DNA of 63,827 nucleotides, the filler included, from Stramenopiles sp. TOSAG23-6 (taxonomy: Eukaryota), in NCBI GenBank assembly GCA_900128565.1. It is 3 parts of 3 records of this genome, joined end to end, with 100 filler letters (N's around TTAATTAATTAA, not from the genome) between each part and the next. Parts side by side here need not be neighbours in the genome. Positions count along the whole stretch, not along the records: positions 22,283 to 44,382 come from LT636019.1; positions 44,483 to 63,827 come from LT636050.1; 1 more part is not named here. One strand, written 5' to 3'. Each line of letters starts with the position of its first letter. Positions within the stretch are counted from its first letter, which is position 1. Below are positions 34,679 to 63,827 of this stretch, in pieces. Both the position numbers and the translations under genes were made by a program. Below the pieces are notes generated by a model. The model ran no database searches. It was not told the origin of the DNA and was given only the letters and a program-made list of their open reading frames with translations.

Positions 34679-36466
34679 TTATGTAACTAACATTTTTTTA
34701 GCAAATGTGCTCATACAACAACCAAATGCCTGTATAGGTGAAAATGGGTATTTAAAATCTAGAGAATATACATTCCTTCTCACTTTCCCAAAACGAAGCT
34801 GTTCTGTATCAATCCCAAATTCACTTTCTAGATGACATGTGTTGTAAAAAAATATTTTAAAAATTTGAAATTCGTTAGGTATGGTATTTGGTACGAAAAG
34901 AATAAATTTGAAATTCATGATAAAAACGTACATGAACTTTCCACCTCAAGTAGAAAATTTTTTTTTGACGCTTTCTTTACACGACCATCAAAATTGAGAG
35001 TCCACGCATTCAAATCTTTATTCCATTTATTGTAAAAAAATATAAAAAAAAAATCGTTAGGTACAAAAGTTTCTATGAAAAAAAAAAAAAAAAAAGTCGA
35101 TATTATTTTGAAAACGTACACGATGGCTGTTTTGTACGAAATTGTAATAATTGAGACTGTTCTTGAACGCCCAAAGATGCATATTCATTTCTAATAACCT
35201 CCTTCTCACCTCCGGTAGGTTTCTCCTTTGTAATTCGATTTTTTTGTTCCATATCAAATCGGTCACAAAGACTCATAAAATTAGCTTTCAATGCATCTTC
35301 ATCATCATGACGTGGTAGTATCACTTTCATGTATTTTGGAAAAATATTTGAAAAAAAAATTGTTCGGTACAAAATTTCGTATGAAAAAATAAATTCGAAA
35401 TAAAAAAAAAATAAAACATACATCGAGTTTGGCACTCGGGCTAAGATATTAGTCTCAAAACGAATATGGATTAAATCGTGAGCAGCATATATTTTCAAAA
35501 ATACTTTACATTTTGATGTTTCTTTGTTAGGTACAAAATTTGGTATGAAAAAGATATTTATTCAATTTTGAAAAAAACGTACATGACTACTTTTCACCTT
35601 TAATTGAGGATTTCGTGCTCTATAATCAAAAAGAGAAAACTGCTTTCCAGTCATATTACTTATCATACACCCTAAATATACTGGACTTGACTCAGATGTT
35701 GGTATACTATCTATAGTTGTTAGCCTAAAAGTGTTATTAATTGTACTAAATATACAGAGACCCTTGTGCGTACTATTCATACTAGCAGCCATGTNTTCGT
35801 GAAAAAATATTTTTTTTTTGTCAAAAAGCTTGTTAGGTACAAAATTGTGTATGAAAAAAAATATATATTCATGATGAAAACATACATCATAAATTCGCCC
35901 GATTGTTTGTGAAAATGCCAAGCAGTAACAAACGCACCGACGTATCGACGAATATATCCTAAACACCATATATCAGACACGGAATCAGTTACAGGAGATA
36001 AAAATGTTGCCTTTTGTCCGTGCATTAGTTGGTGCAGACGCTGACCTTCTGGAACCTCAGCAAAGTCCGTTGTTGGTTTCTCTTTAAATATTCCTCGGAG
36101 CTTATTTGGATTATCTTTTATTGGTTCGCTTATTAAAGCATTACCCGTAGAGAGATCAAAGAGTTCATCTCCACTAGCAGAATACTCTTCGTAGGACTCT
36201 TCGTCGTCAGAAACATTATTTGAGCCTTCTTGAGAACTGTTATCCGAGTCTTTCTTAGAATCCTCAACATCTACAGTCACAAGTTCTGCCTGTATGTTGC
36301 TTTCTTTTACAGTGGGCGTACTTAATTTATTCACGTCTGTGCTGATTGGCTCACTTAGAATACCCTTCTCTACATTTGATTCAGTCTCTAAGGGAGCTGC
36401 GTTTAAATTAGTTTCGGCTACATCACCGAAAATATCCCAAACGTCATCGAACTTTTGATCTCCCAT
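34679..36466 (-). CDS. Tubby-domain protein with five repeat-family introns
   Basis: YLG...SN..G..F.LFD, FETNIL...P..M.V.LP, K.P.WN..L.AW.LNF.GRV..AS.KNF, FGKV....Y.LDF.YPFS..QAF.C. Confidence 0.9.
34837..34931 (-). mobile_element. Repeat-family intron GT...AT
   Basis: TCAT|GTACG..CAACACAT|GT; gives VESSC-HLESE. Confidence 0.85.
35025..35119 (-). mobile_element. Repeat-family intron GT...AT
   Basis: TCG T|GTACG..CAATAAAT|GG; restores the tubby motif KQPSWN. Confidence 0.88.
35329..35421 (-). mobile_element. Repeat-family intron GT...AT
   Basis: TCG AT|GTATG..AAAATACAT|G; gives PNSMKVILP. Confidence 0.88.
35487..35582 (-). mobile_element. Repeat-family intron GT...AT
   Basis: CAT|GTACG..AAAATATAT|GCT; gives KSSH-AAHDL. 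Confidence 0.8.
35791..35885 (-). mobile_element. Repeat-family intron GT...AT
   Basis: ATG AT|GTATG..ACAT|G; gives GEFMMAAS. Confidence 0.85.
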
Positions 36467-39750: not shown

Positions 39751-40943
39751 ATGCCAAAGCGCTGGAAGCGGCGACTCCGAACTCAAATGCGGTTGGCTCA
39801 CGAAGCCAATGCATTACGTGTTCCGAATTCTTCATTGAATAACTCAAAAGTGGTTGAATCAAAGCAGCCCCAGGAATATTTCCCACTTGACGAAAAAGGT
39901 GCTGCTCGTTTTCTTAATGTAGAAGCGATGTCGAAGTCAGATTCCCCTACTGATCTGACGTATCATAGTGCTGGATTACCCATATTATATGGTAGTTTAA
40001 TTGATCTTCCTATTCCTATTCAGGAAGGAAGTGCTGATCTCAAAATAAAGTTAGTCGCCACTGGGGGAGAAATACAGTATTCTGTATCTTGGGAGTCTCT
40101 CTGCCCAGTAAAGCATTTAGGTGTATCCCCTTCGAAAGTTCAGAAATACATTGAAAGTGAGACATCGCTTAAAAATTCTAATGAAAATTCTACAATACCT
40201 CCGAGTATTTTTGAAAAAGAAGAGTCACTAGAATTATTGCCCTTAACTAATCTGAAAGGTTCGGACAACATTTCCCTGTTTATTCCTAAAGCTGGTGTTG
40301 TTACATTACATGTGCAAAATAGTAGTACTACCTGGCCCGTAAAGGATGTACATTTTCAAAATTGAATTTCGAATTTTTTTTTTTCATAGAAAATTTTGTA
40401 CCTAACGATTTCTTTTTTTATCTACACTTTTTTTCACAATACATGATGATGTAGTATTACACTACGTTGTCTCTTTAGAACACATTTGTCCTTTGGTAAC
40501 GAAACGAAATATCATGTATTCACTTAAAAAGCAGTGTAACGATTTAAATTCGATATATCGTGATAGTCTTAGAGTTGTTGAAGAAAGTAGTCAAAATTTA
40601 GAAACACTTAGAAAGAAATTATGTATGTTTTATTTTTTTTTTTACAAAAAAATCGAATTTATTTTTTTTGAAAAATTTTGTACCTAACAAATTTAAGGTT
40701 TTTTTTTTNAAANATTTTTNCNAAANACATAACGCTGCTGAGATAGAACATGCTACGCTGGTGAATCGACTTACATTAGAGAAAGAAAGCATCGAATTAG
40801 TTCAAAGTAAACGAAATATAGCGTTGCTTGCAGGAATTGATATTAGAGATAAATTACTAGTTTTGCAGTACTTAACTACACGCGAAGAAAAGGTATGGAA
40901 TTGTGTATGTACAGATTGGCGATCTTATTGGTTCATGAAATAG
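39751..40943 (+). CDS. Hypothetical protein in three exons; second junction ambiguous
   Basis: ORFs 39751 and 40493 join exactly after removing 40348-40444; third ORF follows an n-containing intron. Confidence 0.55.
40348..40444 (+). mobile_element. Repeat-family intron GT...AT
   Basis: GAT|GTACA..TACCTAAC..CACAATACAT|GAT. Confidence 0.85.
40623..40730 (+). mobile_element. Repeat-family intron; 3' end contains ambiguous bases
   Basis: T|GTATG..TACCTAAC..cnaaanacat; frame is kept only if it ends at 40728 (AC). Confidence 0.6.
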
Positions 40944-41174: not shown

Positions 41175-43787
41175 ATTCTGCTTGTTTAGTTGGATTTCCA
41201 ATGCTTCACATTTTTCAGTCAAAATTTTATTTTGTTTCTGAAGTAAATTACGCCTTGAATTATATTCACATCTCGAACGTTCCATTCCCGTTTTGATCAT
41301 TTTTAGCATTTGAATTTGTTTTTTGCGTTCCTTACGTAATTTATTGACATCTTCCACAGCCGATTTTAATTGTTCCTTCATGTTAAATGCCTCTGTTTCA
41401 GCATTTTTGACCAATTTATATTGTTCATTTAATTTTTCTTCATAATATCTCTCTAATGCTTCTACACCATTTTGAACGCATTGAGACCCTCTCGTAGGTA
41501 ATGGCGATGTCACGGGAAATACCTCTTTTGGTCCATCTTTCCAGTTTGAAAAACATTCCGTTTTGTTTGTTGGCGTGTGCGCACAAAACGGACTTGTCGC
41601 TGTTTCTGTCATGTCTGGAAAATTTTGTTCTATACAGCCATTTCTTGATATTTCTCTCTTGGAAAGATGAGTACACACTTGAGACTGATTATTTATCCAA
41701 CGCATATATGAAGTTGCTTTTGTTCGCATACTATCCATAACCTGCGGTGGAACAGTATATATATATTGTGAAAAAATATTTTTTTTGTTTTTGTTTTTTG
41801 TTTTTTGTTTTTTGTTTAGGTACAAAATTTCGTGATAAAAAAAATGTAGATAAAAATTGAAAAAAAAAACATACACTCTGTTCGTTGACTCTATTAACTT
41901 GACTTTGTATGTATCATAACTACTACTATTGTTTCTATCTACGCAGCATATATTATAATATTCAATGACTGATGCTTCAAGAGTTACCATAATAGTACTA
42001 ACATTTTTTAGAGATTCTTCTAAGTTGGTGTTGCAACGTCTCACCTGCTTATTTACAAAAGTTTGTAGTTGCTCTTCCCGTAGCTTCAATAATGCACTAT
42101 TTGTGACTTCCTTAACGGCCAAAAGAAGTTCAATTATTGCGTTTAGTGTCGCTCGTGTAGTACTATTCATACATTTTGGAAAAATATTTGAAAAACAAAA
42201 CTTAAATTTGTTAGGTATAAAATTTCGTACGAAAAATAAATTCGAAATTGAAAAAAAATAAAACATACATTGACCAACGAGGATCACGGATATACGCATT
42301 TGTATCTTCCAACATATCATGCATACCTGGACGTATAAAGAATGAGATAATATTTTTTTTTCGACTTCTTAGAGTTTGTATTTTTGTTCCCAACTTTGAT
42401 AGAGATTTGGATAAAGCAATTTGGCAGTGTCTCAATTTTGGCTTTTCGGTTCGTCTGCCTTCTTCGTCCAACTGCAATTGTAAAAGAGGTAAAATTGCAT
42501 CAAAACCACGTGACGCATCACACATAGACATTGTTGGGTCTCCATTATTAGAATCTGTTTGTTGATTTTCTTTATTCAAGTCAATATATGTTGTATCAGT
42601 AGATAGATTATCTCCATAAGCAGCACCGACCCATGATGCTACAGTTACATGAAATTGGGATAATTTACTAAAATGTTCTGCAAGTGCTTCAGACACCCTT
42701 TGTGCAATAAAACGCCATTTATCGCGCAAAACATCCACAGTTTTACCAACAGCAGTATCAGAATTTGTGCTATCCTTCAAATTCGTACCGCCAAGATCTG
42801 TGCCTAAATGACGCTCTAACTGTATTTTTTCACGCCACAAGTGAACAAATTTAAACAATGTTTCACCAGCTGCAGTAAATACTTTAGCAACTTTCATAGC
42901 ATGAACCATTCTCAGTTGTCGTCCAGTTTCGTCAAATCTTGTGAAAAATATTTCAACAGTTTGATATTCGTTCAATATGAAATTTTTATGGTAAAAAAAA
43001 TTAAAATTAGGGTTCATGTATGATGAAAACTTACATGTTGAGGAAGGTTCCAGCAGGAGTGTCCTTGGTTCACAGAATCATCAAATGGAAGACGTTGCTT
43101 GACACGCAAGCGCTCGTGTGCCATCATATTTGTCATATGTTTGTTAATATTCTTCATATTTAATTCATTTAGCTCAAATTTTTCTTTAGTGTTTTGAAAC
43201 TCCTCGCTTTGGTCACTGATGCTTCGTTCAAGATTTTCTTTAGTACGTAAAAGTTTTTCGATAAGTTTTTGTTTCTCGACGATATCGGTCGCCATATTTT
43301 GGATGTCTTGAGCATTTCTTTCGTTTTGAGTTCGTGCTACTCGGCTTGCCTCATCAGCAAGTTTTTGGATATCAAATATCTTCATATGGCACCGTTCGTT
43401 TTCGTCAATCTTCAGTTTTAACTCTTCTAATACAACGGCCATTTCGTCTTTTAGTGTTTTTATAGTTGTAGCTTCCCCTGTAACTGAGGAAACAACACCT
43501 CCAAACCACGATGATTCTCCTTGCTTACGAAATTTGTCATTTTCATCCTGTAGTTTTTTTATTTTTCTCGTTAAGTTATCTTGATTTGTAGACAAGCGAT
43601 TAATTTCTTCAATGGACGCACAGAGCTCATTGTCTTTTTCGCGAAGTTCAACTTCCAAATCACCACTTCTTTCCTGTTCACGAAGCACAGCTTTCTTTAA
43701 CACAGAATGCTTTGATTTCACTCTATTATACTCACGCTTCAAGTCCAGATCAACAAGATGCTTACTTTTAGCATATGCTTTTGACAT
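41169..43787 (-). CDS. PPP1R21/KLRAQ-like coiled-coil protein with three repeat-family introns
   Basis: EYNRVKSKHSVLKKAVLREQ (KLRAQ-like), EELKLKIDENE..H, LPFDDS......WNLP.H. Confidence 0.75.
41761..41874 (-). mobile_element. Repeat-family intron GT...AT, 114 nt (3n, stop-free)
   Basis: AGA GT|GTATG..CACAATATAT|A TAT; read through by the ORF track as an F/K-rich insert. Confidence 0.8.
42169..42268 (-). mobile_element. Repeat-family intron GT...AT
   Basis: TCA AT|GTATG..AAAATGTAT|G; gives PRWSMNST. Confidence 0.85.
42934..43034 (-). mobile_element. Diverged repeat-family intron GT...TT
   Basis: CAT|GTAAG..CACAAGATTT|GAC; the nearby AG gives an immediate stop. Confidence 0.75.
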
Positions 43788-43945
43788 TGTCTTTTTCGAA
43801 TCTGTTTCTGTGTTGAGGAGGATGTTGAGAGAAAAAAAGAGAGGAGCGAGAAAATTCAAAAAAAAGGATCAAAAATTGTGGCACAAAACTGCTTTGTATG
43901 TTTTTTTTTTATAGATTTCTAAGATTAGATTGCCTTAAGATTAGA

Positions 43946-44330
43946 TTATAGAAATAGTCTAAAAAAGGTGTAAAAAAATAAAATGATTGAAAAGACTAAA
44001 ATCGCTATAGGATAACATTTTTTAGAATATGGCGACTGATGAATATTGTTCACATTAGTCAAGTCCAATTCATTGACTACACTTCTAGCTTCAATCACCA
44101 ATAACGACGGAATTATATATTGAGAAAATATATTTTTGAAATTTGTTTTCAAAATTTTTGTTAGGTACAAAATGTACTAAGAAAAAAAAAATCGATATTG
44201 GTAAAAACTTCAATTATGAAAACGTACACAAACATTACTACAAGACCGGCAAATGCACCAGTAAACTTTGTTACATCTTGAACATTTCCGTCTACAAAAA
44301 AAACAAAGCACGAAATTAAGATAGGTCCAC
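43946..44330 (-). CDS. 3' exons of an amino-acid-transporter-like membrane protein (TMEM104-like), truncated by gap
   Basis: GPILISCF...NVQDVTKFTGAFAGLVVMFV-IPSLLV after intron removal. Confidence 0.55.
44115..44227 (-). mobile_element. Repeat-family intron GT...AT
   Basis: TTT GT|GTACG..TCAATATAT|A ATT. Confidence 0.8.
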
Positions 44331-44382
44331 ATGTATTTTGGAAAAATATTTCAAAAAAAAAAAACTAAAATTTGTTAGGTAC
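44331..44382 (-). mobile_element. 3' half of a repeat-family intron at a contig end
   Basis: GTACCTAAC..TTGAAATATTTTTCCAAAATACAT. Confidence 0.8.
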
Positions 44383-44482
44383 NNNNNNNNNNNNNNNNNN
44401 NNNNNNNNNNNNNNNNNNNNNNNNNNTTAATTAATTAANNNNNNNNNNNNNNNNNNNNNNNNNNNNNNNNNNNNNNNNNNNN
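44383..44482. other. Assembly linker
   Basis: N44-ttaattaattaa-N44. Confidence 0.95.
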
Positions 44483-44534
44483 TACGAAATTTTGTACCTA
44501 ACAAATTTCGAATTTAATTTTTTTTACAATATAT
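44483..44534 (+). mobile_element. 3' half of a repeat-family intron at a contig start
   Basis: TACGAAATTTTGTACCTAAC..TTACAATATAT. Confidence 0.75.
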
Positions 44535-45709
44535 GTAAATCCACCTTTATATGCAATTACTTTTGCAAATAGCGTAGAACATTTTGACAATGTACAAAAA
44601 TTTACGTCGTCTGGTGAAATCAAAGGAAATCAGTCTCCAACAAATCTTACATCCTATCCTAACAACAAAAATTCAAAATCGAGAAAAAGTTTATTATCAA
44701 AGTTACCGAGTTTGGTAAAATTGACCAATACATCAATTAATTTTAAAGAAGCTTCAATTTGTTCAATTTGTAACACGAGTTTTAATATATTTAATAGAAG
44801 ACACCATTGTCGTTTGTGTTATAATAGTTTGTGTGATAAATGTAGTAATAGTAGATTGACATTGTCCTCAAGTAAAGTTATGAAAAACACGAAAAACACA
44901 AATGAAGTAAGTCGAAATATTGGTGATATAAATGACGAGAAAGAATTATTACGTGCGTGTGATCATTGTGTCTACGCTTTAGTAAATCAACAAACGCAAA
45001 TTATGGAACAAAAGCAGAAAATCGAAACATTACAGTCAAAAAATACAAAGCAAAGTAAAATTCACACTGATGAAAAAAAACAATTAGACATTCAAATTGC
45101 TGATCTGGAGGGAAAACTCTCATTAGAACATGATGAATTATTAAGATGCAAACGTGCTATTCGACAGTACGAAGTTGATTCATCAAATATGCGAAAAATA
45201 ATCACTCATAAAAATGAAGAAATTAACAAATTGTGTAAAAAGAACCAAGAATCATTATTGAAAACTTTGACATCAAAACATAAAATAAAAAAAGAAGAAA
45301 AACAAACACAAAAAGAAATAGAACGTAGTAGAAATGTTTCTTTTGCAGATAGTGTACGTTTTCATTTCAATTTCGAATTTATTGTTTTTATACGAAATTT
45401 TGTACCTAACAAAAAACAATTTTGAAATATTTTTTCACAATACGTGTTGATATAATTGAGACAAAAGATACAAATGTATTTGTGAATTCATCAAATGATA
45501 AAATAAATGATTTGTTTCCAGATGATGAAATTGTGAATTCCCAACGAGACTTGGGACGCAATAGAATGTGTGTTTTATTTTTTCAAATATGAATTTTTTT
45601 TCGTACGAAATGTTGTACCTAACGAGTTTTTTTTTGAAATATTTTTCCAAAATACATAGGAGCTAGAAATGCTGAAAACAATGATGCTTGTCAGTGTATT
45701 ATTTCTTAG
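44535..45709 (+). CDS. FYVE-finger coiled-coil protein with C-terminal CaaX (5'-truncated); exons 44535-45353, 45446-45567, 45658-45709
   Basis: CSIC..SF..FNRRHHCRLC...LC..CS, RACDHC; spliced C-terminus ends CQCIIS*. Confidence 0.8.
45354..45445 (+). mobile_element. Repeat-family intron GT...GT
   Basis: AGT|GTACG..CACAATACGT|GTT; exon dinucleotide GT duplicated. Confidence 0.82.
45568..45657 (+). mobile_element. Repeat-family intron GT...AT
   Basis: AGA AT|GTGTG..AAAATACAT|A GGA; yields the CaaX terminus. Confidence 0.82.
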
Positions 45710-45823
45710 TGAAAAAACTCAGCGCGAATTTCGGTGACACATTTGTTAAAAAATTATATTTTTTCAGTGAATGTTTCAATAAAATATTTTAATAATAAAA
45801 ATTAGGCTTACATTTATCCTCCT

Positions 45824-46699
45824 TCAAGGATTAACCCATTGTGCAAAATAACCACCAAATATACTAGTCATACCCGCAGAGATCAAATTTACCTGAGTAT
45901 TACTAAGAAAGTCTGTGCCACATATTAAGTCACAATTCGGACCTGGAGAAGAAAAAACACATTTTTTTTCTTTTGAAAAGTAAGATACTTGAAATAACTG
46001 CCCCAGGATGGAATCGACAGCTGACCCGAAAAGACCACATATTGCCCCAATTACTGTGAGACTACACAGCTGCATGGCATCACCACCTACAAAGCAATGT
46101 CCACAAAATGCGTAAACAATACCAATAAACGCACCCCCGATTATACTTGCTATAGTCCCCACTAAAGAAACAGCTCCATTAGTTCCACGAGGAACAACTC
46201 TACACCCTAAAATTAAGCGGGGTTTAGTCATAGTTTCACCCCAATATGATGTCAAAACACCAACTTCAGATGCAAAAGTATCACCACAACAGCAAGCATA
46301 ATGGCCTAGATAGGCTGCGAGAAACCAACTAGCATTAGGAGAATCTGAAAAATTAAGAGCAATGTCATTTCCAAAGATAATGGAATATGCCAAACCTATG
46401 ATACAACCAATAATACTACAGCACAACACTTGCATTGGACCTCTAGCAGACTCCTTTTCAAAGTTAATATCGCAAGCGCGTTTTTCCTTACTACCAAATT
46501 TCGTCAAACAAGAACCAGATATGTAAAATAAGATAAGAGTTATCCCAAATCGATAAGATGCAACAAAAGAAGAGAGTCCAACAAAAAATGCGGCCTGAGC
46601 TCCATGAACGTTGAGACTCTTTCTACGTAAACCATGTAAACTAAGCACCACAGAAATAATTAATGCCAGAAAAATCCGAAAAGTAATAGCTTCAGTCAT
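45824..46699 (-). CDS. TMEM19: TMEM19/DUF92 membrane protein
   Basis: KSL...GA.AAF.VG, R...QVLC, GDT.ASE.G, VP.GTNGAVS..G, DS.LG, N..VN. Confidence 0.92.
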   Translation of the reverse strand: MTEAITFRIFLALIISVVLSLHGLRRKSLNVHGAQAAFFVGLSSFVASYRFGITLILFYISGSCLTKFGSKEKRACDINFEKESARGPMQVLCCSIIGCIIGLAYSIIFGNDIALNFSDSPNASWFLAAYLGHYACCCGDTFASEVGVLTSYWGETMTKPRLILGCRVVPRGTNGAVSLVGTIASIIGGAFIGIVYAFCGHCFVGGDAMQLCSLTVIGAICGLFGSAVDSILGQLFQVSYFSKEKKCVFSSPGPNCDLICGTDFLSNTQVNLISAGMTSIFGGYFAQWVNP

Positions 46700-47803
46700 T
46701 ATAAATAAAGCTAATTTTCCAAAAGGTAGGTAATAGAAAAATAAATTTATTGAATAAGAAACCAATAAGAGTGAATCCGCGCGAGGTTCTTGACCATTGC
46801 GAAACACGAAATACGTACTACAAAAAAATATCTCGTTACTCCCTCTCTTCAATGAAAAACAGACTGGACAAAATTAAATATATCAATCAGAGATTGAATA
46901 TATAAAATAATGCAGACCCAGTCAGAAAAAAAAATCCAAAATAAAAAAAAAACACGAGATTATTACAGTGACTACATATGAGTTCTAAAATTCAATATAA
47001 ATATTGAAAGTTAGAGATATGTAATATATAATAACTTCTGTTATTAGAAGATCCTACTTCAGTGACTACAATGTAATATGTAATAGCGTCAGAAAAAAAA
47101 GAATTGTCAAATTACTATCCAGTTGTGAAGGTTGGTGCCCACAATAATGAAAAGAAAAAAAAGAAAAATAAGAGAATCCGGTTCTAAGGATCGGTGCCTA
47201 TTCAGGGGTCGGTGTCCCCTGTCCAGTTTCTAAGGGTTTGGTGCCCATCCAGTTTCTAAGGGTTGGTGCCCATCCAATAATCGGGAAGACCTTTTGACCA
47301 GTTTTTCAATATTGACCGCGCAAAAACGCAAACCTGCTAGAGTTGACTATAGTATACAGTATACTGTATACTTAGTTAGTCTTAGTATACCTAGTCTTAC
47401 TAATACTATTTTTAATTTTTTTATGAAAGATACGTTGAACCCCACATTTGTTTTTTATTGTTTCTTTAACTATTACAAATGCACAAACCTGGTTTCAAGT
47501 AACAATGGATGAATCCTATTTGATAGATCAAGGTGATTATACTAGAAGTGTTTGGCGATGTATTCAATCATTGTAACAATGGTGGGTAAAGTCAAAGGCG
47601 CGGTACTGTGCGTACGATGAGATGTGGAGATTTATCTCTTGATGAATAATTTAATTGCTGAGCAAAGATAACCAACAGAAAATCATACATCTCTTACCGT
47701 ATTTTTATAATAGAAAGAAAATGAAAGAAATCGCAAAAACTTTTTTTAAGAAAGTATTATTTTTCATATGAAGCATATTAGCTAATATACCAGCTCATCA
47801 CGT

Positions 47804-48658
47804 CTATCTCCTAAATCGGAAAGACTCGTTTTTGCTCGATGGACTTGTTTGACTCGCATTCTTTGTCGGTTGATTCTTTTCGTTTTCCTTTTCTTTTTTG
47901 GCGACTTCCTTTTGTACAGTCGGTTGTGTATTTTCGTTTTCTTTTTCTTTTTTGGCGACAGGTTGATTCTTTTCGTTTTCTTTTTCTTTTTCTTCTTCCT
48001 GTTTGGCGACATTGACTACTTCCTTTTGTACAGCAACCTCATCACTTGCCTGTACCTTGTGGCTTTCTTCAATCTCGGCATTGTTTTTTACTGAAACGTC
48101 GTTTAGACGTTTGTCAGTTTGGGTAGCACTCGCCAAAGCTCCATCCGTCGTTGTAGAAGCCGAGTGTAAGTTCTCGGCAGCTGCGTTCCTCTCCTGATTT
48201 TTTTGCAATACGTTACCAGCGGCCATAGTTAGTACCTTTTGTCTTTGAGCATTAGCAGTGTTTTCAGATTTTTTTCTTTGCTTTTCAGTTTTATCTTTTT
48301 CAGCATTGAGCTTTTGAGTGGATTTTTTTTCTTCTTGTTCCTTGTCATTTTCAATCTTCTGGCTCGCCTCTTTTTTTTTTTTCGCTTTTTCAATTGCTCC
48401 TTGTACCTCATTTTCGTTTTCTTTTGTCTTAAGCTCATCTTTGACACTTTTAACTGCGTTTTCTTTACTCAAAGCTGTCGATGACGGCGCGGTATTCGAC
48501 CCTTCCGTTGTGGTTGCCGCTTGTTGTTCTTTCGGCCCTTTCGACTGGGGTTTCGCTTGTTGGGTTTGTTCAACCTGGGTTTCCTTTGCATTTTCCATTG
48601 ATAAAGAGCTTGACACAAGAAAAGCAAAAATAACTGGAACAATGAATAAGCTTTTCAT
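47804..48658 (-). CDS. Secreted K/E/Q-rich low-complexity protein
   Basis: Signal-peptide-like N-terminus; VAKKEKENEKNQP repeats. Confidence 0.65.
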   Translation of the reverse strand: MKSLFIVPVIFAFLVSSSLSMENAKETQVEQTQQAKPQSKGPKEQQAATTTEGSNTAPSSTALSKENAVKSVKDELKTKENENEVQGAIEKAKKKKEASQKIENDKEQEEKKSTQKLNAEKDKTEKQRKKSENTANAQRQKVLTMAAGNVLQKNQERNAAAENLHSASTTTDGALASATQTDKRLNDVSVKNNAEIEESHKVQASDEVAVQKEVVNVAKQEEEKEKENEKNQPVAKKEKENENTQPTVQKEVAKKEKENEKNQPTKNASQTSPSSKNESFRFRR

Positions 48659-49255
48659 TTTGTAAAATGTAAGAGTTTGATCTCTTTTATGAAAGTAGGT
48701 ATGGGTAGTTTCACTAATTGCGAATTCAGAACGTATCTTGGATGGATCCGATCTAGATCAGTCTCAAACGAGAAAAAGGCAAAAAAAAAGTCCTTCATTA
48801 AATTTTTGCGCAAACCTGTCACATCGACATCATCGAAATTCGAAAATTTCGAAATAATAATTTTGAATTTGAAATTTGAAATTTTGAAAAAAGAGGGAAA
48901 AAAGAGAGGATCTGAGTCGTCTACTCCCAGTAATCAGCAGTTGCAAGTTTGTACCAAAACGTGTTGCTTGTTCAGACCACTCCATTGGAGACAATATAAT
49001 GAACATGTCTTGTTGGATAAGGATATAATACAATACGATGTACTGATTCAACCTTTTAGAAGTAAAAATTTTGTATTTCGTGTCATTTTTGTATTACATA
49101 CGAAATTTTCTACTAAAAAACATCTTTATTTCGTGTGAATTATCTGATGAGAAGAACTCCAAAAGAAGTCAGTAGGAACTTCGAGGAACGCGAAAAACTC
49201 AAGCGAACTCAAGTGACGAATTTAGTGATCATTTATTGTTTTACTGCATCTTATA

Positions 49256-51028
49256 ATGGAAACAATGAAAAGTCTTTGTGTCATCATCCTTTTGCTCGGG
49301 TTTGTCACAACGAATGCAAAATTCATCGATTTTGAGTATGAGCTGTCGAAGCAAGACCCTACTTTTTACAAAGAGATCGACTGGTCAAACAGAATACTTG
49401 AGCACGAGGATGTGAAAGAAAGATGGACGAGAGAAGCGACTATCATGAGTGGATTTGGAAGACTTGAGTACGAACATAATAATTTTGCGTCAAAAGTTTA
49501 TGGTGGGTGTAACACAAAGAAACAAATCAAATTTGTTCCTAAGAAAGTAAAAGATTTTCAAAAGTTATCCTTTCATCACGACGGTTTGCGTGCGTTTGAT
49601 GAGGTATTTACGTTTAACGGGAATGCAAAGCAATTGAAAAAAAATGGAACTCTTCCTCAGACCCAAGAGAAATTATGGAAACAAATCAAAACTTCATTGG
49701 AGAAGAAAATGCCAAAATGTTTACCTCGACCTGGATATTGTGGCAAGTGTGAAGATCATCAAACAAAGAACGAATGTGAGGCCAAGGTAGACTCTACTAC
49801 TAATGAAAAACAAGGTTGTTCTTGGCATGAGAATTTGCACATCCACAAGATCAGCGAAGTATATCCTGCTCGTGAACATTTATGTACGTTTTCATCATTA
49901 ATGTAAGATTAATTTGCTTTGTACCAAATTTCCTTCCTAACAAATTTCAAATTTGATATATTTTTTTAGAATACATCCTCTGCAGAAGAAACATTCTGGA
50001 ATAAAATAAAGAATGAAGAAAAAATACAATATTCTAATGGGATAACCTGGAAAAAATATGCGGAAACACTTGCCTCGTTACATCGAGTGAGTAAATATAA
50101 TTTGCCTACTGTATTTTCAAAAACATCAAAGTACCAAGTTTTTGAAAAGCTTAATGAAAACGTTTCGATTCAAGACACATGTCCTGATATCAATATTATA
50201 GGAGGAATATCAGCGTTACCTAAAGTTCACGTTGATTACGTTGATGTATTTTTGGCCTATATGTATGAATCTGCAATTGGAGGAAGTTCAAAACCTGAAG
50301 ACAGACTTGCGTCTATTGATGAGAATAATAATCTTCGAACTCCGAACCTATATTTCACGGAAATGTACAACATATGGTCACCTTTACTTTCGCTTAAGAC
50401 TGATCCTCTTGCTTTCCGTGTTGAAGATAGTATTAACAAACCTGCGATTGAACTCAAAGAAGGACGACAAACATGCGACACTGTAAAAGATAAAAAATTT
50501 TGGTTTACCGAAGACTTAAATATTGGCCAAGGTCTCGTTTTCAAAACGAATAAAGTGCAACATACGTCAACGAATTCTATGGGGATTATGGATGAAGATA
50601 TCTCTGCAAAAACAAATTGTCGTATATCAAGTGAAAACCGTTTTTGGGTGTTAGTGGAGGAAGCACCGCGACCATATCCGGATCCTAATGATCCAGATGA
50701 GAAAGATCATGTGGCGGGTACTTGCAACGACGACTTGCCATTTATTCAAAGACAGGGAAAAAATCCATACTCGAAAAAAAAATCATGGTGGACACCAATT
50801 ATAATATATATAGTTGTTGTAACATGTGTATTAATTTTGGCAGCTATTATAATTATTTATATTATAAGAAGAAGAAAAAATGAAAAATCTACAACAGCTG
50901 ACAGTTCAGCAGCACCAACTCAACTAAGCAAAGGACCAGTTCAAAGGTCAAATACCCCAATGAATAATGTCCAAGTAATACCAGTTAAAGGGTTAAATAC
51001 CCCAATGAATATCGAAGTAATAGGGTAA
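49256..51028 (+). CDS. Type I membrane protein of unknown function; exons 49256-49883 and 49977-51028
   Basis: Signal peptide; TM followed by RRRK; two ORFs join after intron removal. Confidence 0.7.
49884..49976 (+). mobile_element. Repeat-family intron GT...AT
   Basis: TTA T|GTACG..TCCTAAC..AGAATACAT|CC; the AG 7 nt upstream would create TAA. Confidence 0.8.
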
Positions 51029-51257
51029 AGCATCGTTTCTTTTAGGCTGGGAATTTGAAAGTTTTTACGATAGTTTCATACGATAGCTTCATTTTATCTA
51101 CTCTATTTTTTGTATGTTATGAAAGACATAAGATGTAGATTAAAACATTTATCTGAACTATGGTCTTGTTGAAAATATATGGTACATACTTTTTTTATAA
51201 TAAAAAATATATCTTACGTGATACCTACTACATACTACTCCATACATCTTAGACAAA

Positions 51258-53653
51258 CTACAAAGGTATCTTCATTCTAGCAACAGAAACAGCATGATCC
51301 AGTAGAGTGCAATCTACATGATTAGGCAGTGTTACTTTTAATCTTGGCGTTCGTTTCATTTCACGTTTTATCGCATCTTCAGCATTATTATTTTTAGCCC
51401 ATGATCTACGAGAAATTCCATTGTTTACATCCCAGAGTAAGACACTCTTTGCACGTTCGGCAGCCTCTAACGTTCCATCCAATACAAGTCCAAATCCACC
51501 GTTAATAACCTCACCCCATCCGCAACCACCACCATTATGCAAAGCTACCCAAGTACATCCTCTAATAGCATCTCCGACAAAGTTTTGAACGGCCATATCA
51601 GCACAAAAATGAGAACCATCTTCAATATTACTTGTTTCTCTATATGGAGAATCTGTACCACTTACATCATGATGATCACGTGATAAAATTACAGGACCTT
51701 TCAACTTTCCCGATGCTATCGCTTCATTAAATGCCAATGCAATTTTTGTTCTACCCTCACAGTCCGCATAAAGTATTCGAGCTTCAGAGCCAACGACAAG
51801 GTTGTTACTTTCAGCATTTTCAATCCACATAATATTATCATTGAGCTGTGCAATTACTTTCGCAGGTGCAAGTTCCTTTTGCTCTGTCATTACTTGAGCA
51901 GCAATTGTATCAGTCATTTTCAAATCATCATGATTTAGACTTGTACATATATTGTAAAGAAATATTTTTTTTGTAAAATTTGTTAGGTACGAAATTTCGT
52001 ATCAAAAAAAAAATAAAATTGAAATAGATGATGAAAACGTACAAACCCATCGAAAAGGTCCAAAACCCAAAGAAAATATATCACCCATTATATCTTGAAC
52101 ATAAGAGGGATAACGAAAATTAATATTTGAATTATTTTCTTCAGCAGCATTACATTTCGTGTTTGTATTAACTTCTTCAGAGGAAACAATAGATACATCA
52201 GCACCAGCAGCAGCAGCTTCCTTTAAAAATGCATTTCCATAATCCCAAAAAAAAACTCCTTTTGAAGCTAAATTATTTATTGCATTCACCTGACGACGAA
52301 GAGATTTTTGGACGCACTCTTTAAACAATTTTGGATTTTTCACCATGAGTTCGTTCGATTCTTCTACAGATAAATCTACGGGGTAATAACCACCGGCCCA
52401 AGGGTTGTGGAGAGACGTTTGGTCTGAACCTAAATCAATCAGGACTTCTCCAGTTTTATCAGCAATAGAAGAAAATTTTTCCCAGACATCAACAATATTT
52501 CCATGGAAACCAATTGAAATAGATTCCTTTTTTGCTTTTGCTTCTCTCGTACGATGAATTAATTCATCAATATCAGTAATTTTTTCCAAGACCCATCCTT
52601 GCTCGTGTCTTTTATTTAAAGCATCTTCATTAACCTCACATAATATACCTACAGCACCACACACAACAGCAGCTTTGGCTTGTGCACCACTCATTCCACC
52701 AAGGCCAGAGGATAAATAAACTTTCCCTGATAAGTTGGATGACCCAAGATATTTACGACCAGCATTCAAAATGGTAATGGTGGTACCATGTATTTTGGAA
52801 AAATATTTCACAAAAAAATCGTTAGGTACAAAATTTCGTACGAAAAAACAATCGAAATTGAAAAAAAATAAAACATACATGAACTATACCTTGAGGACCA
52901 ATATAGCAATAAGAACCTGCTGTCATTTGACCATACATGGAGACACCCATACATTGTGAAAAATATTTCAAAAACTTGAAATTCGTTAGGAACAATATTT
53001 TTTTTGTACAAAAAAATAAACACAAAAGTCATGAAGATAACGTATAGAGCAAACATTTTCTCATAATCTTGTTTTGAACTATGATTTGGAATAACCATAC
53101 CATTCGTTAAGACACATCGAGGGGCACCAGAATGAGATGGATATATCCCTTGTGGGTGCCCAGAAGCCATAACAAGAGTTTGCTTATTATCCATTTGGCA
53201 TAAATAGTACATGAGTAAGTGATACTGTGCCCAGTTGCTAAGGACTTGACCATTACCACCATACGTAACAAGTTCATGCGGATATTGTGCAACACGATAG
53301 TCAAGATTGTTCATAACCATTAATATTATAGAAGCTGCTTGGTTACTCTCACATGGATATGTATCAAGTGGATAAGCTTTCATTTCATATTCTGTTGGTC
53401 GGAAGCGATACATGTATATATGACCATAATTTCGAAGTTCCTCCGCAAACTCTGGAGCAAGCTCAGCATGGAATTGAGACGGGAAATAACGGAGCGCGTT
53501 CGCAATAGCCTGCGATGTCTCTGATTTCGATAAGTTAGGCCGACGTTTGGGAGCGTGAGGCACTGATGAATCTCGTGACACAGGTGGTGGAAGAGGCGAT
53601 AATGGAATACCTGCAGGTAGAAGTTTTTTAAGAACAGAAGCAACGCAACTCAT
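51258..53653 (-). CDS. UROC1: Urocanate hydratase, eukaryotic type, with three repeat-family introns
   Basis: NNLD..VAQ.P.ELVTYGGNGQ, YGQMTAGSYCYIGPQGIVHGT, GLGGMSGAQ, DQTS.HN, DYGN, GFGPFRWVC, SRDHHDVSG, HNGGG. Confidence 0.97.
51947..52042 (-). mobile_element. Repeat-family intron GT...AT
   Basis: GTT T|GTACG..ACAATATAT|GT; restores GPFRWVCTS. Confidence 0.9.
52788..52878 (-). mobile_element. Repeat-family intron GT...AT
   Basis: CAT|GTATG..AAAATACAT|GGT; restores PQGIVHGTT. Confidence 0.92.
52949..53045 (-). mobile_element. Repeat-family intron with AT donor (AT...AT)
   Basis: GCT CT|ATACG..CACAATGTAT|G GGT; restores MFALGVSMYGQ. Confidence 0.85.
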
Positions 53654-54102
53654 CTTTAACTAATATTAAATATGGTTTCTATTCAATATCAAGATGGTAG
53701 AATAGTAATCAACCAAAAGACCAATTTTTAGAATCTCAACAGATTAGATTGAGATTGTTTTTTTTAGTAGGAACACATAAATGATGTCAACATAAAAACA
53801 CTATTCGATTTGAGATTGAGATTTCGTGATTTCCACGGTTTCGTGTAATTTCGCAAACAATTCTCACGTGTAATCTATTGTGTTAATTCTGTTTACCTAT
53901 GTTTTGTTTTTATCGGTTTTGATGTATTTACTTTGTTGTATTATGCATGTTTATTACTTATAAATAAAAATTGGCTTGCTAAAAATTTGTTTCACTCATA
54001 CAAATTCCATAGCTAATACCATTCAAAATAATCGGAGACTTTTACCAAAATTTCGATTTTTTTGGAGACTTTTACCAAAATTTCGATTTTTTTTTTCTTA
54101 CT

Positions 54103-55172
54103 TTAGCTAAATGGACTAGAAAAGTTATAGGCATCCGGGTCAACAATAGTGACTATATCACCTTTCGATTGTTTAATTTCAGATCCTGTGTCGCTCCACA
54201 TGTATAGTAAAAAATATTTGGAATTTAAATTTTTGTTAGGTACAAAATTTTCATACAAAAAAAAATTTTAATTTAAAATTTCGAAACGTACATCCATTTT
54301 TGACAAACTTCATTATATTCCCACACTCCAGAATGTGAATAATTTTTAAATTTTCGAGATATAGAAGGGGTAAATTTTCTTGGTTTGTATGAAAAATCAT
54401 CTTCTTGGCTATTCGGTGTTGAAACTCTTTGAGTAATAGGAGCACCCCATTTATCTCTTACAATAGTTTGTTGTTTTAATGAATTAGCAACTAAATTTTC
54501 ACGACGAACTTTTTGCAACTTTCTAAATTGCTGCTGAGGACTCAAATATTGTTTCTGTCTTGACATTTGTTTGTTGTTTTTAATTGTTCTTCTCTTTCGA
54601 TGTTTTTCAAATAATTCCATTTGTTTTCTTTTCTCAGTTTCTGTAAAGGATACACAATTATTCCATATTGTCTTTTTTAAAAGTTTAGGGTGATTTGGCA
54701 TTTCACCACCCCAGTGCTGTCTCTGAGGTTGCTTCGCTACTGAATCAAATAGACTTTGATCCAACTCAAATTTTGATGCTTTTGGCCTAAATTTCAGATT
54801 TTTGCGAGGTAAAACTTCAGCTCTGAAATTATATTTCATACCTTGCAAGGGAGGGTCGTTTGCCTTTTGTTGATTAGAACTATTAAAACATCTCTCATTT
54901 TGATTTCGTGTTGTTGTTGAATTCCAAAGTTTCCGTCGAACTTGCAAAATATCTTTTCGTTTTGATTGAAGGACATACTCTTTTGCTAATCGTGCTTTCT
55001 CAGGAATATCAGAGATATGAAAAACACTTTCATTCTTAGGGTAGTGGATTCTATCTCCACGACAACTTCCAATCTGAAACTTGGCCCGGGTAAAATCGTG
55101 AGTGCTTGAAGTAGAAACTTTCTTTTTAATAGGAGTTCCTCCGCTCAGACTTTCAATACTCCGACGAGACAT
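54103..55172 (-). CDS. Hypothetical basic protein; exons 55172-54292 and 54199-54103
   Basis: ORF continues HSGVWEYN..WM-WSDTGS..GD..T after intron removal. Confidence 0.7.
54200..54291 (-). mobile_element. Repeat-family intron GT...AT
   Basis: TGG AT|GTACG..TACTATACAT|G TGG. Confidence 0.85.
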
Positions 55173-55509
55173 TATTATTAATACTAGTAATTGATTCTTA
55201 TTCAAAAAATACTAGAAGCGTATCTTAATATTGTATAAAAGGAAAAATAGCGGGAAAGTAGATATAATATTGAAGGACTACTAAGTATTAAATTTTGTAA
55301 CCGTGACTGCCCTTGACTGGCTAAATAAATTTGAAATTCAACTGGAAATCGCGCGACTCGAGCGCGAGCGAGAGACCTTCAATCGTCGTCGTCGTCGCAA
55401 AAAAAAATTATCAAAGTCGAAGAGAGACTGCATAACAAACAAGAGTTTATAGTTGTTTCGCAAATTAGTAAAAGCGGCATATTATCGACTAATAGTTTGG
55501 CCATACACA

Positions 55510-56484
<975 letters not shown>

Positions 56485-56806
56485 TAATTTTTATTCACTT
56501 GGTGAAGTTTTGATTTTATATGTAATAATAATAATAATATTGCGTTTATTTTGTACGATTTCTTTTGTTTTTCTTTCTTATTTTTTTTTCCCAAAAATGG
56601 CACAAAGCTGTTAATGAAAAAAAAGAAAAAAAAAACGGAAATTTATAGAAAACGTATCATAAATACAGCAACAGCAACAAGTTCTCTCTTCGCCAGTACT
56701 TACACAAAGAAGAAGAATACAAAAGATTGTCACCAGTATTTATACAAAGAAGAAGAATACAAAAAAATCTCTCGGTTTTGAAAAAGTTGGCAACAACTTC
56801 AACTAA

Positions 56807-59455: not shown

Positions 59456-59564
59456 ATGATGATATGGGAGTTTTATTGTAAAATGTTCCAAATATAAAAC
59501 ATATTAATTACTAAAATATATTATAACATATATTTTAGTTTGTAATTCGTCTATTTTTGAATAT

Positions 59565-61922
59565 CTAATTTGTACTATTTACAGATTGATTCGATTTAAT
59601 ATGACTGCGTAAGCTGAACGTTTCCATTTTTCCAGTTACATGTTTCACCTGCATAGAGGAAAAACATTTCAATAACTCAGGAACATATGTTCTGTGTGTC
59701 AATTTTGAAGATACATTTTTACACTGTGGTACAGCAACAAAAAGTGTTGAAACCGACGTCAACCGATTTCTCAAAGTCTCAAATGCAGAACTTTGAGGTA
59801 AAATCATTAAAAGGCCGTACATAGATTTCATTAAATAAACATGTTGCATGCCACTACCATTGAGTAATTGTAGACGTAACTGTAAGAAAATAGGCGACTC
59901 TAAAAGTTGTACTAATTTGTCAATTTGCATTAAAAATCCAAGAGTAACATCCACTTGAGCAAATTCATTGATTAACTCAGAGGCTAAATGGTAATTTTGT
60001 GACAGCAAGCATAAACTAAATAAAGAAACAGGATTGTGACAAAACGACATATATAAGGTACGAAATATGGGGTATCCATCACCTTTCTCCCCTTTCTCAC
60101 AACTATGGCGTAATCGTTGACGAAGTTCAACTAATTCATCTGATGTGAGAAGAATTAAACTAAGACTTTGAATAATAATTCGTGCAAATGGGAGGTCATT
60201 TTCGTGTAAAAGAATCTTAGCTATTGTTGTATATATTTTCTCACTGTTCAGATGTAGACATAAATTTCTTATAATAAGCGATCCACGCTGTTCTAATAAA
60301 TTTCTATTTGTACGAAATAAACGAATTAAATCGGTTAAAACACGTTCAAAATGATCATCGCTCGATGCAATACGAGAAAGCATGCATTGTGAAAAATATA
60401 TTTTTTTTACTGTAAAACAATTCGTTAGGTACAAAATGTTTTACCAAAAAGAAAAAAAAAATGAAAGTAATGATGAGGGTTAGGGTACACTTCAAGATCT
60501 AACAAAACAACTTCATCTGAAGCATCCATCAAAATTTCATCTGTAAATATTGGAAACAATTCATCAATCATAATAAGAACTTGAGCTGAGTCTTTTTCAA
60601 GTAACATAGACACCCAAACATTGTGAAAAAATACATCAAATTTGAAAGACGTTAATAAACATTTCATTGGATATAAAACAATTTGATATACAAATAAAAA
60701 AAAATCAAATTCAAATGTGAAGTACAACTTAATGAAGCCATTCTTGTCATTTCAACAGGACTACTAAGAAAAGACTTGAGATGAAGCAATAATGGTTTAA
60801 AATTTAATACAGTTTCACTTTCCTTTACCAAGAGTAACAAATCTTCATTAGTTTGTTCAGCATTTTCACGAATTTCACGTTCTTCATCTGCCAGAAGTTG
60901 AGCAACTGCGTTCAATAATGTCGCGTACAACTTTTTTAGTCTTTCACCACCCAAGTGAATAATATCACGAATCCATTGTATTGCAGTCAAGTATTGTGAA
61001 AAAATATTTCAAAAAAAATCATTAAGTACAAAATTTCGTACGAAAAAATAAATAAATTCGAAATTAAAATGAAAACGTACAATCTGTTAAATCTCGCACG
61101 ACTAGAATTACATTGTTCCACAAGTATTTCAACTATTGGTGAAAGCTCAAGTGTTGATACATCACTTTGTTTGATTTCTTGAAGAAATTCACAAAGGGCT
61201 TGGTCTGCTTGTTGTCGAATTTCTCGAATATCATCACTAAGCATATTAAATAATCCTTCCAAGAAATTTGGTAAAAAATCCAACATATTTATAAATGGTA
61301 CAGAATCCAGTAGAACGACCCATCCAACTAAAAGTTGCCGGATATAAGGATTACGAGTTTTAAGCTTTCTTTGTAAAAGAGGAATAAAATGTTCAACTGC
61401 AAATGTGTCTGATTCTGTGACAATTTCTTTTATGAAACGATCAAGTAACTGTGCGCCATTCTTTACGTCGACATCAACATCAGAATATAACTCACAAAGA
61501 CCAGCAAATATTTCATTGAAATGACCAAGAATTCGTTGGCGAGCGACTTTGGCGATATTAAACAAAGCCTCACATGCGTAGTAACGAACTCGTGTTTCGG
61601 GGTCCTGAAAACAGTGAATTACTGGATTTAGTAATAAAGGTAAATACATATATATATCTTTCATTAAACCAATTGCAACCGCAGCTAACCCTATAAGCCC
61701 CCCCTTACGATGATTTGCACTAGCAGAACGCGTAAATTGATCACTTAATAGCTTTATTACACCTTCAATCTCTTTGGTCTTACATTCATTTGTTAGACTT
61801 TTTATTGTCGTCTCTACCGTTAAAGCCGCAGATTTGCGACGGTCATAAGAACGATCACCCAACATTCGCTGAACCTGCTCCGGAATAAGATCATATGATC
61901 TAGAATTCGCTGCGTCGACCAT
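59565..61922 (-). CDS. VAC14: VAC14 scaffold of the PIKfyve complex with three repeat-family introns
   Basis: L.DR.YD.RK.AAL, RKGGLIGLAA, RVRYYACEAL.NI.KVAR, V.NGA.LLDR, LLE.RGSLIIR.LC, QIDKLVQLLESPIF..LRLQLL. Confidence 0.97.
60382..60488 (-). mobile_element. Repeat-family intron GT...AT
   Basis: GAA GT|GTACC..CACAATGCAT|G CTT; restores DLEVLSRI. Confidence 0.88.
60616..60725 (-). mobile_element. Diverged repeat-family intron GT...TT
   Basis: AGT T|GTACT..CACAATGTTT|GG; restores RMASLSWV. Confidence 0.82.
60989..61080 (-). mobile_element. Repeat-family intron GT...TT
   Basis: AGA TT|GTACG..CACAATACTT|G ACT; restores NRLTAIQWI. Confidence 0.88.
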
Positions 61923-63761: not shown

Positions 63762-63827
63762 GCAGGTTTAATTTTTTTTTCAATTTCGAATTTATTTTTC
63801 GTACGAAAATTTGTACCTAACGATTTT
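63762..63827 (+). mobile_element. Repeat-family intron truncated by window end; possible GC donor
   Basis: GAT|GCAGGTTTAATTTTTTTTTCAATTTCG..TTCGTACGAAAATTTGTACCTAAC aligns to the consensus. Confidence 0.65.

Follow-up and report, generated by a model that had tools for sequence, protein, structure and literature searches.

The introns described here interrupt genes in a 63,827-nucleotide stretch of DNA (the window), put together from three records of the Stramenopiles sp. TOSAG23-6 assembly GCA_900128565.1. Their closest described counterparts are the introners, for which the mechanism paper is reportedly that of Huff et al. 2016. According to the parts covered of two surveys, introners of Micromonas, Aureococcus, and other protists resemble the present family in being similar short introns that sit in unrelated genes at unrelated positions and bring their own splice signals (PMC9860276, PMC12130899). 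If the 2-nucleotide (nt) repeat found at the borders is read as a target duplication, the likeness extends to the removal of one copy of the duplication together with the element and to exact excision, and the lack of phase bias and a host from the marine plankton are common to both. In contrast, the introners covered there possess GT/GC-AG ends, the AG often being contributed by the duplication, whereas the putative duplication of the present elements is 2 bp long and usually AT, their 3' end is never AG, and canonical GT/GC-AG borders are not found among them. Also unlike known introners, the present elements almost lack inverted terminal repeats (3 nt). The element is real and well supported at the level of sequence, and on this footing it would be a new form of introner with an AG-less 3' end. 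No cases from marine stramenopiles (MAST) or other stramenopiles are mentioned in the parts covered of the two surveys (PMC9860276, PMC12130899), and the 2025 survey among them states that it dropped families with unfamiliar splice sites unless they were confirmed by transcripts; an element family like the present one would therefore be missed by its splice-site filter.

The non-canonical introner elements of the parasitic dinoflagellate Amoebophrya, as described in the covered parts of PMC7789003, are likewise repeated introns without GT-AG ends for which a transposon-like origin is suspected, and a direct repeat overlaps their borders, of 3-5 nt there and of 2 nt here. They carry inverted repeats of 8-20 nt that form hairpins, have neither conserved terminal dinucleotides nor a clear 5' consensus, and belong to a host in which U1 was not found and the splicing mechanism is left unexplained (PMC7789003). 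The present elements, by contrast, conserve a 5' GTAYGT together with a branch box and a U-run, form no hairpin, and are non-canonical at the 3' end only. Departures from GT-AG that extend genome-wide are described, in the parts covered of the sources, for the tunicate Fritillaria and for euglenids and diplonemids (PMC13326754, PMC12621601); there, however, the 5' end is non-canonical as well or the borders are variable, and the introns are not copies of a single repeat with a constant 3' motif. Within the literature searched, supplementary files aside, no non-AG introns are described in MAST or other heterotrophic stramenopiles. In their covered parts, the MAST genome papers mention introns twice or not at all, and do not mention splice sites.

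U12-type introns include rare GT-AT, AT-AT, and AT-AA subtypes and have the 5' site RTATCCTT. They resemble the elements in their highly conserved 5' site and branch box, the purine at +1, and a 3' dinucleotide that is not critical. Their branch box, TCCTTAAC, is located about 10-20 nt from the 3' end and no pyrimidine tract is present, whereas the distance is much longer here; moreover, U12-type introns are rare in any genome, whereas the window contains about 0.6 element copies per kb. Introns of Giardia and Trichomonas have an extended conserved 3' motif in which branch point and acceptor are fused. The likeness to the present elements consists in a fixed cut inside a long conserved 3' motif, but the motifs of those protists end in AG and contain the branch point, whereas the box is separate here and the motif ends in AY followed by two variable bases.

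Three introns, at 42934-43034, 45568-45657, and 49884-49976, had been singled out in a sequence-only reading as introns at which available AGs next to the 3' end are skipped. What that reading missed is that they are members of one repeat family of 90-114 nt, an introner-like element with a 2-nt repeat at its borders whose terminal dinucleotide varies with the repeat. A profile built from 22 copies yields 37 matches with E < 1e-4 in the 63.8 kb, 15 of which lie outside the building set, and an additional diverged copy (60616-60725, minus strand) is recognised only through the homology of its host gene, Vac14. The 3' motif that the earlier reading had pointed to is indeed more frequent than chance would allow, with 18 matches against 4.9 expected and none of 100 shuffles reaching 18. 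Pairwise identity between copies averages 0.71 (range 0.55-0.95), and two subfamilies can be distinguished in the 5' half. The parts of the element are, in order, the 5' end [G/A]TAYGTTTT, a near-invariant branch-like box TTTTGTACCTAAC, a T-run, and the 3' motif TTTYCACAATAY followed by two bases. Written out with its surroundings, the layout consists of (C)AT at the end of the exon, GTAYGTTTT(C/A)AT at the intron start, TTTCAAATTCGAATTT, TTTTTTCRTACGAAATTTTGTACCTAAC, a T-rich spacer of 8-35 nt, and GAAATATTTTTCNCAATAY with two further bases NN, after which the next exon begins with G. These similar introns occupy non-homologous positions in unrelated hosts, namely urocanase, Vac14, helicase, kinase, transporter, FYVE, KLRAQ, and other genes. 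All of the 27 copies analysed are oriented in the sense of the gene that they interrupt, and their distribution over phases 0, 1, and 2 (9, 6, and 10 of 25 copies) fits recent insertion.

For defining the borders, the 5' cut was set at the first base of GTAYGT and the 3' cut was tested by joining the longest flanking frames; counts given for 25 copies leave out those at 40623 (N bases) and 60490. A cut 2 nt past the CAATAY motif is congruent with the longest flanking frames in 20 of 26 copies, where one third would be expected (P = 7e-6), and of the remaining six, two lie next to an exon of 70 nt and conform when this exon is allowed for. Combined with the 5' cut before GTAYGT, this 3' cut leaves 16 or more open codons, and mostly more than 40, on both sides in the best phase in 25 of 25 copies. 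Eight junctions are exact to the codon by homology: three each in urocanase and Vac14, one in motif VI of the DEAD-box helicase, and one in the KLRAQ protein.

The urocanase gene (51258-53659, minus strand), if spliced according to this rule, aligns without gaps with nine homologues at all three junctions (slashes mark the joints): KMFAL/GVSMYGQ at intron 1 (52949-53045, ATACGT...CACAATGTAT, whose first base is A instead of G and which ends in AT), GPQGIVH/GTTITIL at intron 2 (52788-52878, GTATGT...AAAATACAT), and RWVCT/SLNHDDL at intron 3 (51947-52042, GTACGT...ACAATATAT, 5' flank TT). Similarly, Vac14 (59565-61922, minus strand) reads NRL/TAIQW, MASLS/WVSMLLEK, and LDLEV/LSRIA without gaps against eleven homologues, which were taken from a representative library since a comparison with solved structures gave no match. 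Its introns are located at 60989-61080 (GTACGT...CACAATACTT, GT..TT, 5' flank TT), 60616-60725 (GTACTT...CACAATGTTT, GT..TT, 5' flank TT, with the branch-like box TTATTAAC), and 60382-60488 (GTACCC...CACAATGCAT, GT..AT, 5' flank GT), and the junction codon at the second of them encodes an invariant W. In the helicase gene, the exon following the intron at 32016-32107 (plus strand) aligns from residue 364 of the DDX18 chain 9ptu_C; the junction codon is ATT (I), preceded by Y, and motif VI, HRLGRTAR, comes next. In the KLRAQ gene, the junction ...CWNLPQH/DETGRQL at the diverged intron 42934-43034 (minus strand, GTAAGT...CACAAGATTT, GT..TT) is gap-free against ...CWNLSQHDERSRRE... in P0387, the one full-length homologue found.

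With these borders, the last two bases of the 27 introns are AT in 22, TT in three, GT in one, AC in one, and AG in none. Wherever the flank repeats the intron end, the same product can be written as GT..AT or as AT..AC, and it is the copies with imperfect repeats that decide. An AT-AC register, in which both cuts lie 2 nt upstream, was rejected, for at Vac14 intron 3 it would turn into M a V on which 11 of 11 homologues agree. It is also impossible at 51947-52042, whose 5' flank is TT. Two copies, 52949-53045 and 11531-11628, begin with ATACGT and still end in AT; taken together with the imperfect-repeat copies, they lead us to read the introns as [G/A]T...NN. RNA contigs that stop at 51942 fit the GT register, but as they fit the other one with a single mismatch, they are not counted. 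A transcript-derived protein of the same species across urocanase intron 1 was not found, the best match being 74% identical.

The cut lies exactly 2 nt past ...CACAATAY in all eight junctions checked by homology and is compatible with this position in 27 of 27 copies, whereas the CTAAC box lies anywhere from 32 to 55 nt ahead of the cut. The last 14 positions are strongly conserved as TTTYCACAATAYAT, with, in 25 copies, T at -1 in 24, A at -2 in 22, Y at -3 in 24, A at -4 in 23, T at -5 in 21, A at -6 in 23, A at -7 in 22, and A at -9 in 22. Conservation is similarly high at the 5' end (G in 23 and A in two at +1, T in 25 at +2, A in 24 at +3, G in 23 at +5, and T in 25 at +6), and the branch box TACCTAAC, or a close variant, followed by a T-run, is present in 27 of 27 copies. 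It is noteworthy that in the old, drifted copies 42934-43034 and 60616-60725 the 3' motif is better kept than the 5' site and the branch box. Fixed spacing and conservation suggest that the motif is the cause of site choice.

That AGs near the 3' ends are passed over, as had been claimed, is borne out by the absence of AG ends in 27 copies and by the eight homology-fixed junctions. Scanning for the first AG at least 10 nt past the branch box was rejected as a rule, being viable in only eight of 25 copies, which is chance level. An AG occurs between branch box and cut in 10 of 27 copies, at 4, 7, and 17 nt before the cut in three of them and near the branch box in the rest, and the first AG past the cut is located 2-65 nt downstream. 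At 45568-45657 (plus strand, GTGTGT...AAAATACAT, GT..AT) in the FYVE-domain gene, where the upstream exon ends in ...AGAAT, the AT end reads ...RNRIGARNAENNDACQCIIS followed by a stop, a CaaX-type terminus (C-terminal CQCIIS), whereas the AG 2 nt downstream would give M-S-stop with only two open codons, so that the frame is open only with the non-AG end. At 49884-49976 (plus strand, GTACGT...AGAATACAT), use of the internal TAG 7 nt upstream would create a TAA stop with no open codon, whereas 350 open codons follow the non-AG end. The AAG 4 nt before the cut of 42934-43034 would give ATT-TGA, whereas the non-AG end (GTAAGT...AGATTT) yields the match to P0387, and in the helicase the first downstream AG lies 29 nt into the motif VI exon and is out of frame. 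Thus, of the proposal that the acceptor is set by the motif or by structure and not by scanning for AG, the dismissal of scanning holds, the motif would be the determinant, and structure finds no backing in the folding data given below. The notion of AT as the 3' end holds for 22 of the 27 copies and fails for the other five. Candidates for conventional GT-AG introns were found outside the elements, at 18301-18370, 18667-18798, and 55866-55939 (plus strand), by scanning for GT..YAG pairs that join long frames; if they are real, the host still uses AG, and non-AG behaviour is a trait of the element class. Probably, therefore, AG use has not been abolished genome-wide. The candidate at 18667-18798 ends in TTTTCACAATCATAG/G, which resembles the element 3' motif followed by AG.

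The dinucleotide of the exon immediately before the element equals the last dinucleotide of the intron in 18 of 27 copies. Among the five ends other than AT, four match their own 5' flank (GT/GT, AC/AC, and two TT/TT) and one (AT/TT) does not, and only 61 of 100,000 flank permutations reach four of five. Most simply, this border repeat would be a 2-bp target-site duplication, usually of AT. Such a duplication would explain why the excised piece consists of the element plus two bases, for no other cut gives back the coding sequence as it was before insertion. In eight of the nine copies with an imperfect repeat, it is the intron dinucleotide that is still AT, and AT is therefore probably favoured for splicing. 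By a hand count that is no more than suggestive, four of six differences between flank and intron end are synonymous.

Elements are also present at the same loci in an independent seawater metagenome (DNA run X2), in which contigs run from the urocanase exons 10-30 nt into the flanking elements (records 4 and 5). Word depths of contigs, which are neither copy numbers nor, being tabulated per contig, a ranking of expression, sum to 790-10,360 in element-bearing bins of this run compared with 3-46 in other bins. In polyA metatranscriptomes of two studies (X6 and X7), contigs break off from the genome sequence at two positions: two of them, one per study, at 51942, with 134 and 38 further letters, and one at 52786, with 84. 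These further letters are not those of the adjacent element, and both positions coincide with exon edges that the rule predicts when each is placed leftmost among its equivalents, which fits splicing. In the bin 51578-52222, the summed depth of X6 fits an origin of the 134 letters of record 18 within that bin, but other contigs could account for it as well and it was not counted. As a separate observation, element bins of a non-polyA metatranscriptome (X5) show summed depths of 60-1800 across 44483-63827 compared with 0-4 elsewhere, which resembles the DNA run, whereas in X6 and X7, which are polyA runs, element bins exceed the others by a factor of only about 2 to 60. Carry-over of DNA, unspliced RNA, or excised intron RNA could account for this pattern.

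We consider it rather probable that host genes are interrupted by copies of a short, non-autonomous, mobile "introner" whose 3' cut is fixed by an internal motif and not by an AG. Each copy would supply its own signals, consisting of a yeast-like 5' GUAYGU, a CURAY-type branch box (UACCUAAC), a U-run, and the 3' UUUYCACAAUAY. Removal would take the element and the two bases that follow it, i.e., the second copy of the 2 bp preceding the element, and because the duplicate would be removed along with the element, excision would restore the pre-insertion coding sequence exactly. A cut placed after element and duplicate would leave intron ends of AU, UU, GU, or AC, never AG, always 2 nt past the motif, and any AG that lies just beyond the cut, or between it and the branch box, would be ignored. 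Of the features of major-type introns, a GTRAGT/GTAYGT-like 5' site and a CURAY-type box before a pyrimidine tract are present, and the 3' AG is absent. Removal would presumably be carried out by a spliceosome (of the major type) through GUAYGU and the CUAAC branch, the 3' site may be set by a factor, either protein or RNA, that recognises the motif and acts as a ruler, and the elements may have spread as DNA transposons. The more far-reaching proposal, that a spliceosome or a variant of it chooses the 3' site in a ruler-like, AG-independent manner 2 nt past UUUYCACAAUAY whatever the two bases in between, so that element and duplication could be taken exactly out of any coding sequence, probably in thousands of introns of a free-living stramenopile and alongside GT-AG splicing, is put forward as a serious but tentative possibility.

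The elements might never be removed at the RNA level, if the mRNA came from element-free alleles or followed excision from the DNA, or if the interrupted genes were pseudogenes or artefacts of amplification or assembly. The assembly is in fact fragmented, with gaps at element copies, and no direct junction read is among the joints listed. Yet contigs of X2 join exons to elements at the same loci, all 25 copies leave long frames in one fixed register within otherwise intact conserved enzymes, and polyA contigs leave the genome sequence at predicted exon edges, so that we regard this explanation as very improbable. A second, minor-type (U12-like) or otherwise specialised spliceosome with small nuclear RNAs (snRNAs) of its own, acting beside a major one that handles GT-AG introns, would explain both the tolerated non-AG ends and the A at +1. 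The very strong conservation of the 5' site and branch box, the purine at +1 (G in 23 and A in two of 25), the closeness of TACCTAAC to the U12 branch consensus TCCTTAAC, and the presence of three candidate GT-AG introns in the same window speak in its favour. The consensus RTAYGTTTT, however, differs from RTATCCTTT at +5 and +6, which are G and T instead of C and C, the box is located 32-55 nt from the cut instead of the roughly 10-20 nt needed, and the U-run is distinct. An Rfam search of the window found no family and hence no snRNA. Removal by such a spliceosome is therefore unlikely.

Excision could also do without a spliceosome and rely on the two intron ends pairing with each other, a mechanism proposed for the non-conventional introns of euglenids and for the introner elements of Amoebophrya, whose borders, according to the covered parts of that study, overlap a short direct repeat as well (PMC7789003). 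In copies flanked by AT, AU/GUAU is complementary to AUACAU. Among 25 copies, the pair +1:-3 can form in 23, +2:-4 in 25, and +3:-5 in 21, and a terminal helix occurs in some minimum-energy folds. But the complementarity of AU/GUA to UACAU amounts to 3-5 bp, its exon part is lost in the TT/TT and AC/AC copies, and the pair +4:-6 fails in 17 of 25. RNAalifold finds no conserved pair in 18 copies, and eight single folds have z values from -2.1 to +1.0 (mean about -0.5). Ends defined by structure in the manner of euglenids or Amoebophrya were rejected on the basis of these weak folds, and since such a mechanism would need neither a textbook 5' site nor a branch box nor a U-run, excision by end pairing appears quite improbable.

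Several observations weigh against the motif-guided removal of a mobile element that we favour. Among the joints listed there is no read or contig that spans a junction, and cross joints between elements dominate. The border repeat is imperfect in nine of 27 copies, and long terminal inverted repeats are lacking, the ends sharing only GTA/TAC; a test over 24 nt gave 9.0 matches compared with 8.1 +/- 0.4 in shuffles, which leaves the 2-nt repeat as the sole ground for an origin from DNA transposons, and no autonomous partner element was seen in the window. AT predominates so strongly at the intron end (22 of 27) that the sequence at the cut may matter in addition to its position. An in-frame AG exists for eight of 25 copies, at each of which its use is individually possible, and at 42169-42268 the single homologue agrees equally well with the rule and with an AG located 6 nt downstream. 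The branch function of the CTAAC box is a reading of sequence alone and stays putative. All of the evidence comes from one 64-kb window, and matches of the element in the collections viral_contigs (28) and metagenome_contigs (81) are not real by profile, the best having E = 1e-4 to part of the model; as they are due to chance, these collections contribute no further copies, empty sites, or relatives.

Pipelines that force GT-AG introns will mis-annotate such genes. The urocanase model P0002, which is 90% identical, shows a 10-amino-acid insertion, a 19-amino-acid deletion, and a 1-amino-acid deletion at the three element introns, the last of which, at intron 3, corresponds to a forced GT-AG choice; it is also missing 16-23 residues at each of three other places where the window has an unbroken open reading frame (ORF). 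The Vac14 model P0237, also 90% identical, reads into two of the Vac14 introns. None of the element introns of the two genes is free of such errors in these models, and the errors further include a 27-amino-acid insertion and intron read-through. A study of MAST single-cell genomes reports, in its covered parts, low gene counts in MAST-3 assemblies and dynein "pseudogenisation" in one of them (PMC5778133). If this intron class is general in MAST-3, part of the low counts and of the "pseudogenisation" could be an artefact of annotation. The terminal AG and its recognition at the second step are among the most conserved features of splicing, and if our reading is true, many near-identical introns with a normal 5' site and branch box, cut at a constant offset from a motif after AU, UU, GU, or AC, would make the choice of the 3' site directly accessible to study. 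It would also extend the introner idea to elements that carry the signal for their own 3' cut. An element that dictates this cut needs no AG in its target and could therefore spread harmlessly into almost any exon.

The remaining copies are distributed over the whole window. The FYVE-domain gene contains a second element intron at 45354-45445 (plus strand, GTACGT...CACAATACGT), which ends in GT, has GT as 5' flank, and connects 284 upstream codons in frame to 48 downstream ones. In the KLRAQ gene, two more are located on the minus strand, 42169-42268 (GTATGT...AAAATGTAT), where the downstream AG mentioned above is in frame, and 41761-41874, which reaches 114 nt because of a long A-rich spacer between branch box and 3' motif. 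Five introns, assigned by profile and frames, crowd one gene region on the minus strand (34837-34931, 35025-35119, 35329-35421, 35487-35582, and 35791-35885), and an amino-acid transporter gene, supported by frames and Pfam, contains two, at 11531-11628 (ATACGT..., first base A) and 11926-12030 (minus strand). Flanking frames support the copies at 40348-40444 (plus strand) and 54200-54291 (minus strand), and 469 and 547 open codons are found on the two sides of 14540-14647 (minus strand), which lies between a SNF5-like ORF and a bromodomain/PHD ORF. The copy at 56281-56379 (plus strand) ends in ATAATATAT and is ambiguous downstream, where the rule leaves 34 codons compared with 78 in another frame. 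On the plus strand, 62950-63042 lies inside a protein-kinase domain according to frames and Pfam, and 63470-63569 ends in CTCTACAC (AC), with AC as 5' flank. In the kinase exon between them (63043-63469, plus strand) the frame shifts near 63350-63380, with 112 open codons from its start and only 40 back from its end; this change could be due to a small unrecognised intron or to a sequencing error.

Less regular copies include one of 113 nt that adjoins an assembly gap (44115-44227, minus strand) and one with N bases and hence of uncertain length (40623-40730, plus strand), which was excluded from counts. A degenerate copy at 10308-10414 (minus strand) lies outside minus-strand ORFs, between convergent genes, downstream of the transporter; a NUDIX ORF on the plus strand has its tail opposite this copy, which is thus antisense to it. 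At 22032-22165 (plus strand), one and a half copies stand in tandem, a full 5' part being followed by a second branch-box half that runs into the N gap, and this arrangement may represent a nested or tandem insertion or a collapse of the assembly. Element copies abut N gaps and the ends of contigs and of the window, as expected of a high-copy repeat. Within the element (e.g., 52788-52878, minus strand) there are three short perfect palindromes, AAATTCGAATTT, ATTTCGTACGAAAT, and GAAATATTTC, which might serve as protein-binding sites at the DNA level; the GUAC hairpin beside the branch box has a 5' arm that varies between copies.

The window as a whole is gene-dense and AT-rich (about 35% G+C), with long open frames on both strands in the standard code, and Pfam searches identify urocanase, Vac14, DEAD-box helicase, DNA primase large subunit, protein kinase, FYVE, NUDIX, and KLRAQ proteins. 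Among proteins, a EukProt model whose source name contains "MAST3" comes nearest to the urocanase exon, with 90% identity, followed by oomycete, amoebozoan, and animal homologues that are 55-63% identical, and the sequencing runs with matching DNA or RNA are seawater and marine metagenomes and metatranscriptomes. On these grounds the host is taken to be a heterotrophic marine stramenopile belonging to MAST-3. N runs at 22183-22282 and 44383-44482 flank a 12-mer, TTAATTAATTAA, a six-frame stop linker; the window therefore consists of joined scaffolds, and gene order across these two positions is not real. Telomere-like strings, CCCTAACCCTAA(T), occur at three internal positions, 1553 (minus strand), 27699 (plus strand), and 60480 (minus strand), the last of which sits within the 5' part of Vac14 intron 3. 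At 4040-4120 (plus strand), a tandem repeat of about 39 nt (...AAACAATCACGAAATAATACTACTAACTATCCAC...) is located within an EF-hand/IQ ORF of 1823 codons.

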